Of a stretch of DNA of 64,000 bases, positions 4,114 to 52,695 are shown in pieces. The DNA comes from Candidatus Woesearchaeota archaeon (GTDB lineage Archaea; Nanobdellota; Nanobdellia; Woesearchaeales; GW2011-AR15). The first letter of the stretch is position 1; every line of letters starts with the position of its first letter. Where the stretch lies: positions 52,292 through 116,291 of the forward strand of contig JAVZBY010000001.1 in the NCBI GenBank assembly GCA_038874655.1. The letters run 5' to 3'. The translations under genes were made by a program, and so were the position numbers. The notes under the pieces are model-generated. The model was not told where the DNA came from. It saw only the letters and a program-made list of their open reading frames with translations, and ran no database searches.

Positions 4114-4665
4114 ATGAGTTGGAAACAAATTGCTAAATCAAACGATTTAATAATTTTTGAAAAGAATCTAAAAAATTATAAAATAAAAATAGAAGCAAGA
4201 AAAACAAATGACTATTGGGAAATCTTTAAAACTAAAATAAAGGGGGAAAGTTCTACACTAATTTCACAATACAAAGTTTCTAATAATGAATTAAATGATA
4301 TACTAAAAAAACTTAAAAAAAATAAACAAGAGGTAAATGAAGAAATAAACTTTAGACCTGAAAAGATATTTATAAGTCTAAAAAGAATCTTTAAAGAAGA
4401 ATTTACTGAAAAATGGGAATTTAAAATTTTAAATGAAGATAAAAATTTTATACTATTACATTTTGAAGATGCATTAGAGGTAGATATTGTTTTAAATAAA
4501 AAATATAAACCCTATGAAAACCAAATACTAAATCAATTAAGAGATAATTTAGGATTAGAAGAATTTTCCTCTAATATTTATACTAGAGTATATTACTTTG
4601 AGACCACCTCTTATTATAGTGAAGAGAATGACTTTTTTACAGTAGATGAAGATTTTTTAAACTAA
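4114..4665 (+). CDS. Hypothetical protein
   Basis: 183-aa ORF with GTGGGG SD-like site upstream. Confidence 0.65.
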   Translation: MSWKQIAKSNDLIIFEKNLKNYKIKIEARKTNDYWEIFKTKIKGESSTLISQYKVSNNELNDILKKLKKNKQEVNEEINFRPEKIFISLKRIFKEEFTEKWEFKILNEDKNFILLHFEDALEVDIVLNKKYKPYENQILNQLRDNLGLEEFSSNIYTRVYYFETTSYYSEENDFFTVDEDFLN

Positions 4666-4709: not shown

Positions 4710-5306
4710 TTAATTAATTTTTGCAACAATCTCTTCTTCATCAATTTTTATGAAATCAATAAGTTGTTTTTTTTTTAATTTTTCTATGTATCTATAAAAT
4801 GTTGCTTTTGAACATAAATTCTCTTGATCAACAATAATCTCTTTTATATCAGAAGTACTATAATTTTTTTTTTCAGCCAAGCTCAAAATTCTGTTTATTA
4901 TAATATTTTTTCTTTTTTTATTGATTTTTTCTATGAATTTATTATTTTTCTTTTCTTTTTTCAGCGCACTTTCAACAGCTTCTTTTACAATTATTTTAAT
5001 AACTTCTAAATTTAATTCATTATATTTATTTGGATTATTACTCATAATTTTATTGTTTTCAATTTGATTAGAAAAATTCTCTTTATTTTCACTTAAAATC
5101 TCATGATTATTAATAAAGATGGCATCATTATTATTAATTTTTTTTAAAATTTTTTCTTCTTGAGAAACTTTTTCAGATAACTTTTCTTTTAATATATAAT
5201 TTTCTTTTTTTAAATTTTCAATCTCTAATCTTAATTTTGTAATATCTTCTTTTATTCTCGCAAAAGACTCTATAAGTGCATTTCTATCAATTTCACCCCC
5301 AACCAT
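4710..5306 (-). CDS. Coiled-coil + C-terminal winged-helix DNA-binding protein adjacent to candidate origin
   Basis: N-terminal heptads (SFARIKEDITKLRLEIENLKKEN); C-terminal HTH-like STSDIKEII..CSKATFYRYIEKL followed by a beta wing. Confidence 0.75.
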   Translation of the reverse strand: MVGGEIDRNALIESFARIKEDITKLRLEIENLKKENYILKEKLSEKVSQEEKILKKINNNDAIFINNHEILSENKENFSNQIENNKIMSNNPNKYNELNLEVIKIIVKEAVESALKKEKKNNKFIEKINKKRKNIIINRILSLAEKKNYSTSDIKEIIVDQENLCSKATFYRYIEKLKKKQLIDFIKIDEEEIVAKIN

Positions 5307-5349
5307 GAAAAATTAAATTATTAATCCCTTTTTAAATATTTCTAAATTT

Positions 5350-5510
5350 TGATATTTTTATGATACTAATATGATAATAAAATGAAAATTATTGATACAA
5401 AAATGAGACAAAAAATATTAAAATTTCCATAGGAAATAAAGGGGTGTCTCAATCTAATATTGAGACGAAAAAGATTCATTTTTATAAGAAAATTGATACA
5501 AAAATGATAC
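5350..5510. repeat. 11-bp-periodic TGATAC/TGAGAC repeat array with one inverted pair
   Basis: Cores start at 5350, 5361, 5372, 5383, 5393, 5404, then 5461, 5494, 5505; exact 16-mer ATTGATACAAAAATGA at 5391 and 5492; inverted repeat GTCTCAAT-5 nt-ATTGAGAC at 5446-5466. Confidence 0.85.
5425..5445 (+). promoter_or_regulatory. Origin recognition box (ORB) with G-string
   Basis: TTCCATAGGAAATAAAGGGGT matches the archaeal ORB pattern TTCCAnnGGAAA..GGGG. Confidence 0.75.
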
Positions 5511-5546
5511 TTTATTTATAAATACTTTTAAAAAAAGCATAATTTA

Positions 5547-5559
5547 ATTTCCTATGCAA
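5547..5559 (-). promoter_or_regulatory. Inverted mini-ORB (no G-string)
   Basis: Reverse complement TTGCATAGGAAAT differs by 1 nt from the ORB core TTCCATAGGAAAT. Confidence 0.6.
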
Positions 5560-5684
5560 TATAAAGCAAAGAATAAAATTAATTAAAATAATTTTTAAAT
5601 AAGGAAAACTTCTTTGTTGATATTTTACTTTTTAATTAATATTATTTAACTGCTAATACATGTAAAAAATAAGAGGTGGTGTTT

Positions 5685-6089
5685 ATGGATTGCGTATTTT
5701 GTAAAATAATTGAAAATAAAATACCTTCTTCAAAGATATATGAAGATGATTCAGTAATAGCTTTTTTAGACATAGCACCTGTTCATAAGGGCCATACTTT
5801 AGTTGTTCCAAAAAAACACTCGGAAAATATGCTAAAAGATGATGATGAAGATTTAAAAAAATGTATTGTTGTTTCAAAAAGATTAGCTAACGCGATTTTA
5901 AAAGCAACAAATGCAGATGGAATTAACTTAATAATAAACACTATGCCTGCTGCTGGACAAGTCGTAATGCATACACATTTTCATTTAATTCCAAGATATA
6001 AAAATGATGGCTTAAAACATTGGCCTCAAGGAAAATATGAAAACAATGAAATGGAAAGCATTAAAAAGAGGATTTTAGAATTGATGTAA
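5685..6089 (+). CDS. hit: HIT family hydrolase
   Basis: DCVFCKI, GHTLVVPKKH, AGQVVMHTHFHLIPR; ATG at 5685 follows GAGGTGG SD. Confidence 0.95.
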   Translation: MDCVFCKIIENKIPSSKIYEDDSVIAFLDIAPVHKGHTLVVPKKHSENMLKDDDEDLKKCIVVSKRLANAILKATNADGINLIINTMPAAGQVVMHTHFHLIPRYKNDGLKHWPQGKYENNEMESIKKRILELM

Positions 6090-6136: not shown

Positions 6137-6241
6137 CTACATTCTAAAAAAAGGATTTTCTTTTTCTTCAATTACAGATAAAATTCTGCCGTTAAGATCT
6201 CTTATTATCAAGCTGTCTGCACTTGGTTTTTTTAATAACAT
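6137..6241 (-). CDS. Unannotated 34-aa small protein MLLKKPSADSLIIRDLNGRILSVIEEKENPFFRM
   Basis: ATG at 6241 preceded by GAGGAGG SD; higher GC than flanks; below ORF-track cutoff. Confidence 0.55.
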   Translation of the reverse strand: MLLKKPSADSLIIRDLNGRILSVIEEKENPFFRM

Positions 6242-6549
6242 TTTAACGCCCTCCTCAAGCTTTTTTTATCTTTATTTTGTTTTTATTTTACTATTTTCAT
6301 ATTTATAAACTAATAAGCAATTAGTATACTTTTTTATATACTAATATATCGGACATATTTAAATACTTTTCGTTTTTTTAATTTTAAGAAATAAAAAAAC
6401 CACTTTTTTGTTCAATAAATATTTTAATTCTAACAATAAATAGATTAATTTCTTAATAAAAAATTAATAATAAAACTTAATATAATAAAATTACAATTAT
6501 ACAAGAAAAAATATTTAAAAAATATACAATTAAAAAATTGAAAAGTTCA

Positions 6550-48367: not shown

Positions 48368-48672
48368 GTAGGGCAGTACTTAACTTCCGGCATCTTTGCT
48401 GAGGAAAGTCCACCCACCATTAAAAAGCACTTGCGAAAGCAAGATTCCGAAAGGAATGGCAACCGCTCAGAAACGAGACCACTTGCAAGGAAGATGATAA
48501 ATGCGAAAGTTATTGTAAAATAACTGAGATAACCTTTTGATGCTCTTGCAAGAACGGATGAAACGGCGAGTCCTGCTGGTGCAACCTTTAAAAGGGCATA
48601 GTTGAATGTTAAGAAGGACTACTGATTTTTTACAAATCAAGTCCTACAAAAGGTGGCTTACAACTGCTCTAC
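48368..48672 (+). ncRNA. rnpB: RNase P RNA (archaeal)
   Basis: GAGGAAAGTCC, CAGAAAC, GGATGAAACGG, GGTGCAA, ACAAAAGGTGGCTTAC; P1 GTAGGGCAGT/ACTGCTCTAC. Confidence 0.95.
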
Positions 48673-52107: not shown

Positions 52108-52695
52108 ATGACAGAAGAATCATTATTGGTGCCAAATGATGTGTATTTAAAAGCAGGAATACATATTGGAACAAAATTTAAAAGTAAGTTTATGGAAAAT
52201 TTTATTTATAAAACAAGGCCAGATGGATTATCTGTTTTAAATGTACAAAAGATTGATGAAAGAATAAAATTAATGGCAAATATGCTTTCTAAATATGAAC
52301 CGAAGGATATTTTAGTTGTTAGCAGAAGAGAAAATGGTTGGCAAGCTGTTAAATTGTTTGCAAAGGCAATTGGTTGCAAATTTTATGCTGGAAGATATCC
52401 GCCAGGAGCATTAACAAATCCAAGTTTAAAAACTTTTATAGAGGCAAAAATTGTTGTTGTAACAGATGCCTGGCCAGATAGAAATGTAGTATTAGATGCT
52501 TTAAAAGTTGGAATACCTGTAATTGCTTTATGTGATACAAATAATCAAGCAAATAACATTGATTTAGTTGTCCCATGTAATAATAAAGGAAAGAAAAGTT
52601 TAGGCTTATTATTTTATATTGTGGCAAGAGAATACATGAAATTAAGAAATATGGGTGAATTAAAGATTACAATGGAAGAGTTTATGGCTGAATAA
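52108..52695 (+). CDS. rps2: 30S ribosomal protein uS2 (archaeal)
   Basis: YLKAGIHIGT, RPDGL, GRYPPGALTNP, ALCDTNN, PCNNKG. Confidence 0.97.
   Translation: MTEESLLVPNDVYLKAGIHIGTKFKSKFMENFIYKTRPDGLSVLNVQKIDERIKLMANMLSKYEPKDILVVSRRENGWQAVKLFAKAIGCKFYAGRYPPGALTNPSLKTFIEAKIVVVTDAWPDRNVVLDALKVGIPVIALCDTNNQANNIDLVVPCNNKGKKSLGLLFYIVAREYMKLRNMGELKITMEEFMAE

Follow-up and report, generated by a model that had tools for sequence, protein, structure and literature searches.

Can an archaeal chromosome be replicated mainly from a site that lies far from its orc1/cdc6 gene? The question is raised by an intergenic region in a 64-kb stretch of a Candidatus Woesearchaeota archaeon (C1:52,292-116,291, where C1 is contig JAVZBY010000001.1 of assembly GCA_038874655.1), which is referred to below as the window. 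There, an origin recognition box (ORB) and an array of short repeats, or iterons, separate the divergent genes of a winged-helix protein of 198 amino acids (aa) and a HIT-family hydrolase. The assembly, designated G000, comprises 1.26 Mb in 17 contigs with 24% GC, and the other G numbers used here denote its relatives. This ORB-iteron module is interpreted, with a probability of roughly 0.55, as a cdc6-distal composite replication origin that is dominant in this lineage; dominance is assigned to it because the module, and not the ORB pair adjacent to cdc6, marks a switch in strand composition. We infer origin activity from composition only, and DNA binding, unwinding, MCM loading and autoregulation are likewise inferred.

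The starting point is the ORB itself. Its sequence, TTCCATAGGAAATAAAGGGGT, was confirmed on the plus strand at window positions 5425-5445, and a search allowing up to 3 mismatches returned this single match in the window compared with none in 100 shuffled sequences; the box reported in the initial annotation stands exactly as described. When up to 4 mismatches were allowed in the 21-mer, only 3 sites were found in the whole genome (both strands, all contigs), the other two being located at C1:179,415-435 (minus strand) and 179,578-598 (plus strand) as an inverted pair upstream of the main orc1/cdc6 gene. Of 41 genomes sampled across the order, 36 carry the corresponding consensus, TTCCAyAGGAAAynAAGGGGT, while the reversed pattern, used as a control, gave 0-2 matches per strand per genome; the box at 5425-5445 agrees with this consensus at 21 of 21 positions. 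Because the genome holds three such sites, the consensus recurs in 36 of 41 genomes and the reversed-pattern control returned few matches, the box is a genuine ORB of this lineage's class, and the concern that comparable matches might be scattered across the genome is removed. In the contig of a diverged relative, the ORB and the abutting iteron unit are identical despite differing flanks. The neighbourhood also agrees with what had been annotated, namely a winged-helix gene on one side, a HIT gene on the other and no adjacent orc1/cdc6. The main orc1/cdc6 gene (C1:179,713-180,801; TIGR02928, 412.9 bits) has now been located and is the nearest one, about 122 kb from the module with a scaffold gap in between.

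A second, weaker Orc1/Cdc6 paralog (172.4 bits, below the cut-off of 181.3) was found on contig C2 (C2:164,577-165,641; L002:1462-2529). It consists of 355 aa, has no Pfam Cdc6_C winged-helix match, and was found in 40 of the 41 sampled genomes, whether the module is present or not. Its distance from the module is 16-30 kb in G010, G009, G039 and G150, and 120-209 kb in G016, G098 and G086. This paralog, instead of the main Orc1, may read the ORB of the module.

Around the ORB, the hexamer TGA[G/T]AC occurs seven times in 145 bp, compared with at most three times anywhere else in the genome; six plus-strand copies start at 5361, 5393, 5404, 5461, 5494 and 5505, and an inverted copy is located at 5446 (Table 1). 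The pattern of paired iterons gives 3 matches in the window where 0.01 would be expected, and G000 and G016 each contain 3 copies of the paired unit, of which 2 belong to the module. G016, assembled as one contig, has 6 iterons at its module and at most 2 anywhere else. Several iterons in G000 have decayed from TGAGAC to TGATAC, and A-tracts lie between the units. The inverted pair that abuts the G-string of the ORB is conserved in the family alignment as GGGGTGTCTCA...TGAGACGAGAAAGATAC, constitutes the sole GTCTC-N9-14-GAGAC in the genome, and as a single strand has a folding energy of -9.9 kcal/mol (z -5.3).

The second box that had been proposed fared less well. The near-copy at 5547-5559 does match the reverse complement of the ORB core at 12 of 13 bases, but it has no G-string, and calling it inverted carries little meaning because the ORB core is itself a dyad. 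The sequence CATAGGAAA is present 18 times in the genome, 68 inverted-repeat pairs were listed in 501 bp, and among the 16 family loci scanned a counterpart of this dyad exists only in the closest relative, G001. The spacer between the two boxes, initially described as very AT-rich, proved to be ordinary: its 101 bp contain 82.2% A+T and are filled with conserved iterons, compared with a median of 81.2% in 73 intergenic stretches of C1 and with 87.3% in the cdc6-adjacent spacer. The proposed plan of two inverted ORBs enclosing an unwinding element is not supported, the locus having one full ORB and a weak dyad, and between them a spacer that is not unusually AT-rich.

The evidence for origin activity comes from strand composition. 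As gene orientation dominates raw skew, a strand-corrected value, r, was used, defined as the third-codon-position GC skew of each open reading frame (ORF) of at least 120 aa, minus the mean coding-strand bias and signed by strand. Along each of the 13 contigs of at least 20 kb, r holds one sign, with the exception of C1, where negative values (1 to 57.6 kb) give way to positive ones (61 to 295 kb), the sole sign switch within any contig. The best split of the third-position GC skew (GC3) falls between genes centred at C1:60,133 and 61,929 (window 7,842 and 9,638), with a statistic of 2.24, whereas none of 500 permutations exceeded 0.90 (0/500). Third-position AT skew (AT3) switches independently between 61,929 and 63,166 (0/500 permutations), and the skew of non-ORF DNA goes from -0.006 to +0.085 through +0.149 (p 6e-6). 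The scaffold gap ending at 52,291 is not the cause of this switch, because the six genes between the gap and the module are all negative (r -0.19 to -0.51). The intergenic regions nearer the change point contain no ORB or notable repeat.

The cdc6-adjacent ORB pair at 179.5 kb, within a gap-free piece of 70 kb, is accompanied by no sign change in r. A step from 0.207 to 0.293 was detected near cdc6 (best split 171-172 kb; 3/500 permutations; Mann-Whitney U test p 0.004; post hoc), which would fit an origin that is used in only a minority of cycles. In the window and in C1, neither raw GC skew nor raw AT skew has an inflection at the module or at cdc6, so the skew inflection that the initial annotation had named as a check is missing in its raw form and is found close to the module once corrected for strand.

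Relatives of G000 provide both a calibration and further cases. In G150, a switch in the same direction, from negative to positive, occurs at 108-112 kb and coincides with the main cdc6 gene at 111.4 kb, which calibrates the polarity expected of an origin. In G098, a switch of this polarity lies 1-2 kb from the module (379.6 kb), and none occurs at its cdc6 gene (496.6 kb). G016, a single contig of 1,157,790 bp with 42.5% GC, has the global minimum of its raw cumulative GC skew at 873,171, 2.7 kb from the ORB, and a second broad minimum near cdc6. A run of 14 minus-strand genes ends at the G016 module, and divergent gene orientation, computed over +-100 kb, reaches its genome-wide peak there (0.695, a value reached by 0.09% of positions). 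Besides G000, an origin-type signature thus lies 1-3 kb from the module in 2 relatives and is absent in 5, and the cdc6-adjacent site coincides with a sign switch in 1 of the 4 genomes in which it could be examined. Since the odds of a chance coincidence are about 1 in 100 or less per genome, the three coincidences are unlikely to be accidental; the relatives lacking a switch show that its dominance as an origin is not general. The core of the original idea, an Orc1/Cdc6 site of origin type that is not next to cdc6 and is served in trans, holds up, and neither of the refuting conditions named with it applies, ORB matches not being scattered and a corrected switch lying near the module; in five relatives the module has no such switch. 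As a separate observation, strand bias D in G098 changes from about -0.26 to -0.81 at the main cdc6 gene (C1:~500 kb; L168-L169) with its sign unchanged.

The module is conserved together with its adjacent gene. In tblastn searches of the relatives' ORB loci, lone ORBs adjoin orthologs of the 198-aa gene and paired ORBs adjoin cdc6. A profile of the 198-aa protein (alignment A1), compared with the 41 sampled genomes, found the gene in 29 of them and in 16 of the 20 genomes of the family, G000 included; completeness is 76-88% in the four family genomes that lack it. Each of the 16 that have it carries an ORB (0-4 mismatches) about 90-165 bp upstream of the profile match, with the G-string facing away from the gene in 16 of 16. 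The iteron register relative to the start of the ORB is also fixed in the family, at about -66, -34 and -23, followed by the inverted unit at +21 and by units at +37, +58 and +81. A mere effect of composition is excluded for this pattern because the 16 genomes span 24%-42% GC.

Beyond the family, ORBs and iterons stand beside the gene in eight other families, represented by G037, G039, G025, G086, G098, G150, G157 and G137. These eight modules contain 1-3 ORBs in tandem that face the gene, and their iterons mostly read away from it with 1-2 inverted units, the exception being G025, with units on both strands; most of the eight have a TGAGAC unit placed directly against the G-string, some copies of it being degenerate. 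In G036, G026 and G203, iterons are present but no ORB can be recognised. In 9 of 14 non-family loci, neither an ORB nor an iteron cluster was found, although one contains two scattered TGAGAC copies and another a single copy; these nine comprise more distant, longer homologs as well as loci with an ORB on the other side of the gene. G203 (L201-L204) carries a 6-unit iteron cluster just 3' of its winged-helix gene (C1:203,314-203,430), and the ORB is on the 3' side of the gene in G023, G032, G022 and G026; given these differing arrangements, the layout of the module is not fixed across the order. A scan for the exact ORB-iteron junction in about 185,000 species genomes, one per prokaryotic species, returned 15 matches, 13 of which are in archaeal genomes or metagenome-assembled genomes, each with 3-14 iterons within 150 bp. 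The remaining two, in bacteria, presumably arose by chance.

The 198-aa protein is the candidate reader of the iterons. Its homologs are labelled Woesearchaeota or Nanobdellota, and an alignment of 24 of them revealed an invariant CSKATFYR recognition helix, a conserved N-terminal GGDIDRNAL..SF.RIKEDI motif (also written GGxIDRNAL..SF.RIKEDI), a coiled coil whose length varies and a basic stretch, INKKRK. The AlphaFold2 model, with a predicted local distance difference test score of 82.6, consists of helices at 8-88 and 100-146 and a winged helix-turn-helix (wHTH) domain at 151-196. The gene is always adjacent to the ORB-iteron array in family relatives. The iterons are assigned to this protein because an invariant recognition helix pairs with an invariant hexamer next door, and, on this correspondence, the protein most likely binds the iterons of the module.

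Searches of known families placed the protein in none of them. The only Pfam match, to FUR, is below threshold (21.8 bits; cut-off 23.1) and covers profile positions 5-69 of 121, the DNA-binding part only, for which reason the Fur family (PF01475) was rejected; structural matches in Foldseek are limited to about 64 aligned columns. Compared with the PDB by Foldseek, the model matched only generic wHTH regulators at E values of about 0.01, with TubR and ScpB among the weak matches, and a profile search of the PDB yielded only coiled-coil noise. NCBIfam gave no match to the protein, the ESM Atlas returned only 'hypothetical protein' clusters of Woesearchaeota/Nanobdellota, and on viral contigs no real relatives were found, with 2 weak matches of 34 residues. 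A WhiP/Cdt1-like initiator was rejected since a single C-terminal wHTH follows about 145 helical residues, without tandem winged helices, and a Rep protein of iteron plasmids was rejected since no Rep family appears among the Pfam or NCBIfam matches. One homolog is named 'regulator of replication initiation timing', which probably reflects a coiled-coil match and was given no weight.

For comparison, 14 cdc6-adjacent loci of the order were examined. In 13 of these, an ORB pair with outward G-strings surrounds an AT-rich spacer, and in G000 (L001:1200-1390, corresponding to C1:179,412-179,602) the pair flanks a spacer of 142 bp with 87% A+T. Most of the loci also possess a third mini-ORB over the cdc6 promoter/TATA region and a TrmB-like gene upstream (Pfam-checked in L001 only). 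Every one of the 14 spacers contains one 12-nt palindrome of the TTCTATATAGAA class at mid-spacer, a sequence that each of two whole genomes contains only 5 times. Like the ucm motif of Sulfolobus origins, the palindrome may be bound by an additional origin factor. Two copies of this class are located at C4:82,373 and 82,498 of G000, 125 bp apart and about 150-270 bp from the contig end. The inward-pointing G-string described in the initial annotation is the opposite of this outward geometry. TGAGAC was rejected as a general origin motif, its only match in the 14 cdc6-adjacent regions lying inside a coding region. The module has no such palindrome, no inverted pair and no long spacer, and is built differently from the canonical origin.

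A mechanism can be proposed for the module as an origin. Orc1 produced from the gene 122 kb away would bind the ORB in a fixed polarity, while dimers of the 198-aa protein would coat the helically phased iterons along one face of the helix on both sides of the ORB, the inverted iteron unit contacting its G-string end. Such a complex would assist both the opening of the A-tract-rich DNA that separates the units and the loading of MCM, and it would feed back on the promoter of the 198-aa gene itself, which lies immediately past the first iteron. Elsewhere, the dominant origin would be the one adjacent to cdc6, and the module would be minor or dormant. A more far-reaching proposal, tentative and put at somewhat less than even odds, is that the chromosome of this lineage is replicated mainly from the cdc6-distal origin, that the 198-aa protein is a new co-factor specifying it, and that dominance has switched repeatedly between the loci, resting with the module in G000 and G098, with both in G016 and with cdc6 in G150.

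A number of observations weigh against reading the module as a dominant origin. Raw GC skew of C1 is positive throughout, with no inflection at the module, and the corrected switch is estimated to fall not on the ORB (57,716) but 2.4-5.5 kb to its right, a distance of 2-4 genes. The module shows no distinct unwinding element, its spacer containing 82% A+T where the intergenic median is 81%, and in relatives with 37-42% GC the binding sites nearly fill the intergenic region, leaving no long AT-rich stretch. The module lacks the 12-nt palindrome, and of 19 module loci only 1 has a copy closer than 200 bp to its ORB; full ORBs are not arranged as an inverted pair, other families having 1-3 ORBs in tandem; and the orientation of the ORB relative to the gene is reversed between the family and other families. 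The gene family itself was found in only 86 of 401 genomes of the order (E<=1e-15, genomes at least 90% complete, a tally that includes the unpublished G246, G405 and G179). Composition in the relatives is also divided. The modules of G150 (at 214 kb), G086 and G137 have intact ORBs and iterons and no switch; an apparent switch in G086 falls on the artificial end-to-start join and is unreliable. G157 shows a local raw-skew maximum and no significant corrected signal, and G203, with iterons and no ORB, has no switch. The corrected GC3 test in G016 gave p 0.997, the third-position bias being too weak there. In G098 the sign reverts at about 440 kb, 60 kb further on, so the pattern could also stem from an inversion that has the module as one of its ends.

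Several of these points would be accommodated if the region were regulatory only, with Orc1/Cdc6 acting as a transcription factor at a lone ORB beside an autoregulating winged-helix protein and no initiation taking place, an arrangement that would tie expression of the winged-helix gene, and perhaps of HIT, to the replication cycle. In each of the 16 family relatives the array begins directly upstream of the TATA-like box of the winged-helix gene, autoregulation classically involves a DNA-binding gene preceded by its own sites, and the ORBs are single or in tandem, without an inverted pair, a special AT-rich spacer or a palindrome of duplex-unwinding type. The lack of a composition switch in G150, G086 and G137 points the same way, and Orc1 paralogs are known as regulators (PMC9738581). 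Yet this account leaves unexplained the sole switch of G000, the switch of G098 and the skew minimum and orientation maximum of G016, all within about 1-5 kb of the module, and no regulon is visible, as clustered sites in two genomes occur only upstream of the gene itself; it is considered less likely than the origin but is the main rival.

Much lower is the standing of a centromere-like or chromosome-organising site, at which the 198-aa protein would coat the iterons as a partition or anchoring complex and the ORB would couple it to Orc1. Plasmid centromeres such as parC of R1 consist of phased direct repeats in two blocks, and the 11-bp phased repeats in two blocks around a central site resemble them; each genome has one iteron cluster, and the protein combines a coiled coil with a wHTH and has weak TubR and ScpB matches. 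This reading is improbable: no partition nucleoside triphosphatase gene is linked, the neighbours being the HIT gene and a 183-aa gene, and the site is not near a composition switch in G150, G086 and G137. A hair less probable still is an initiator-control locus like bacterial datA/DARS, that is, a cluster without origin function that titrates Orc1 or resets its nucleotide state. Its appeal lies in the 1-3 ORBs placed away from the cdc6-adjacent origin and joined to the sites of a second protein, conserved across families, and in the full conservation of the cdc6-adjacent origin architecture itself; on this reading, however, the composition switch that was observed should not exist, and archaea are not known to have a datA/DARS-type locus, although no search aimed at it was made. 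Chance resemblance or an assembly artefact, finally, can practically be set aside. AT-rich genomes do yield many weak inverted repeats, and scaffold gaps lie 5.4 and 8 kb left of the module, but this explanation is already refuted by the shuffles (0 in 100), by synteny that is kept in all 16 of the 16 relatives, by a contig of 5,042 nt, obtained from a public sequencing run, that crosses the module with 0 differences (the run may be the source sample), and by the position of the switch in gap-free sequence. A composite origin that dominates in this lineage remains the preferred reading.

The features of the locus are collected in Table 1. The TATA-like box, read from the sequence, aligns with a conserved TAT.TAAAt block of the 16 family relatives and appears to be the promoter of the winged-helix gene. 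The HIT gene is syntenic in 5 related loci (L020, L021, L023, L027 and L029) and, in the related loci compared, is not beside the module in other families. A 183-aa gene at 4114-4665 (plus strand), convergent with the winged-helix gene, has no Pfam or NCBIfam family and is syntenic with the winged-helix gene in 4 related loci (L029, L022, L021 and L020). A possible small ORF of about 35 codons, seen by eye at 6139-6250 (minus strand) and preceded by a GGAGG-like motif, sits in the 460-bp gap between the HIT gene and an iron-sulfur (FeS) assembly gene. Rfam and tRNA scans detected no RNA gene at the module, and the sole match in the window is the archaeal RNase P RNA (RF00373, 157.4 bits) at 48368-48672 (plus strand); ARAGORN found 0 tRNA genes across the 64 kb.

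Table 1. Coordinates of the ORB-iteron module and its flanking genes, numbered from the first base of the window.
Feature	Position	Strand	Remarks
198-aa protein gene, proposed iteron-binding factor	4710..5306	-	ORF; 33 homologs in alignment A1
Whole intergenic ORB-iteron module, proposed replicator	5307..5675	.	369 bp between the divergent winged-helix and HIT genes
TATA-like box, putative promoter of the winged-helix gene	5329..5339	-	24-35 nt upstream of the start codon; read from sequence
Degenerate iterons beside the first unit	5350-5355; 5372-5377		TGATAT; TGATAA
Iteron, first unit of the left array	5361..5366	+	TGATAC variant
Iteron pair left of the ORB	5393..5409	+	TGATAC-N5-TGAGAC, 11 bp spacing; position kept in 16 relatives
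Full ORB	5425..5445	+	Dyad TTCCATAGGAA and G-string GGGGT; G-string faces away from the winged-helix gene
Inverted iteron pair abutting the G-string	5446..5466	.	GTCTCA-N9-TGAGAC; 8-bp dyad GTCTCAAT/ATTGAGAC, then GAAAAAGATTC
Iteron pair, right array	5494..5510	+	TGATAC-N5-TGATAC
Mini-ORB-like dyad	5547..5559	-	ATTTCCTATGCAA (reverse complement TTGCATAGGAAAT); no G-string; weak, function doubtful
HIT-family hydrolase gene	5685..6089	+	Pfam HIT, 95 bits; not part of the mechanism

No mapped DPANN origin and no description of this module were found in the searchable literature. In one preprint, 208 complete Nanobdellota genomes were rotated to ORC1/Cdc6, with no origin mapped (10.64898/2026.05.13.725050). 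If the module is an origin, rotating or annotating genomes by cdc6 would misplace the origin in some lineages, and archaeal origins would be able to join a canonical Orc1 box, plasmid-like iterons and a new DNA-binding factor. The choice between two loci of the same ORB consensus would then become a tractable question of evolution and mechanism. Hundreds of closed Nanobdellota genomes are already open to the strand-corrected GC3 test.

The general layout of the locus has a familiar counterpart in iteron plasmid origins such as those of pSC101 and pPS10, which combine a box for the host initiator, phased direct repeats, an inverted repeat and an adjacent autorepressing winged-helix gene whose product has an N-terminus resembling a leucine zipper. 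The likeness concerns layout only, as the module is chromosomal and vertically inherited in the family, and its protein is not a Rep protein by Pfam or NCBIfam. With the canonical oriC1 (PMC4010727, PMC12141716) the module shares an ORB consensus, the same as that of the cdc6-adjacent origin of G000 itself, as well as an intergenic position between divergent genes and a composition switch of origin polarity. It departs from the ORB-unwinding element-ORB plan in having one full ORB instead of an inverted pair, a G-string polarity opposite to the outward layout of the order, and neither the long AT-rich spacer nor its palindrome; its initiator gene is distant while the adjacent gene encodes a wHTH protein, and none of the 14 cdc6-adjacent loci has an iteron array in its intergenic origin region.

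Another parallel is offered by oriC3 of Sulfolobus, which fires without Orc1/Cdc6 and is associated with WhiP, a Cdt1-like protein with tandem winged helices (PMC3607249). In both cases an origin stands beside the gene of a winged-helix protein that binds its repeats, a binding proposed in the present case, and not beside orc1/cdc6, and in both a replicator-initiator pair shares the chromosome with an Orc1-1/oriC1 pair. The module differs in that its protein has one winged helix with a long coiled coil and belongs to no described family, and in that an ORB is kept. Sulfolobus origins also contain the ucm motif bound by UBP, an abundant nucleoid protein with hundreds of sites (PMC12141716), and the module resembles them in having a second, non-ORB element within the origin for which a separate protein would aid activation. 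Unlike the sites of UBP, the TGAGAC array stands essentially alone in the genome, and the cdc6-adjacent origins do not contain it.

Haloarchaea possess several potential origins, some of them dormant (PMC4595724), each located beside its own cdc6 gene (PMC4010727). In the lineage studied here, in contrast, the same ORB consensus is used at both loci and only one of them is beside cdc6. As in haloarchaea, not all origins would leave a signature or fire, and dormancy of this kind would explain why the composition switch lies at the module in G000 and G098 and at the cdc6 site in G150.

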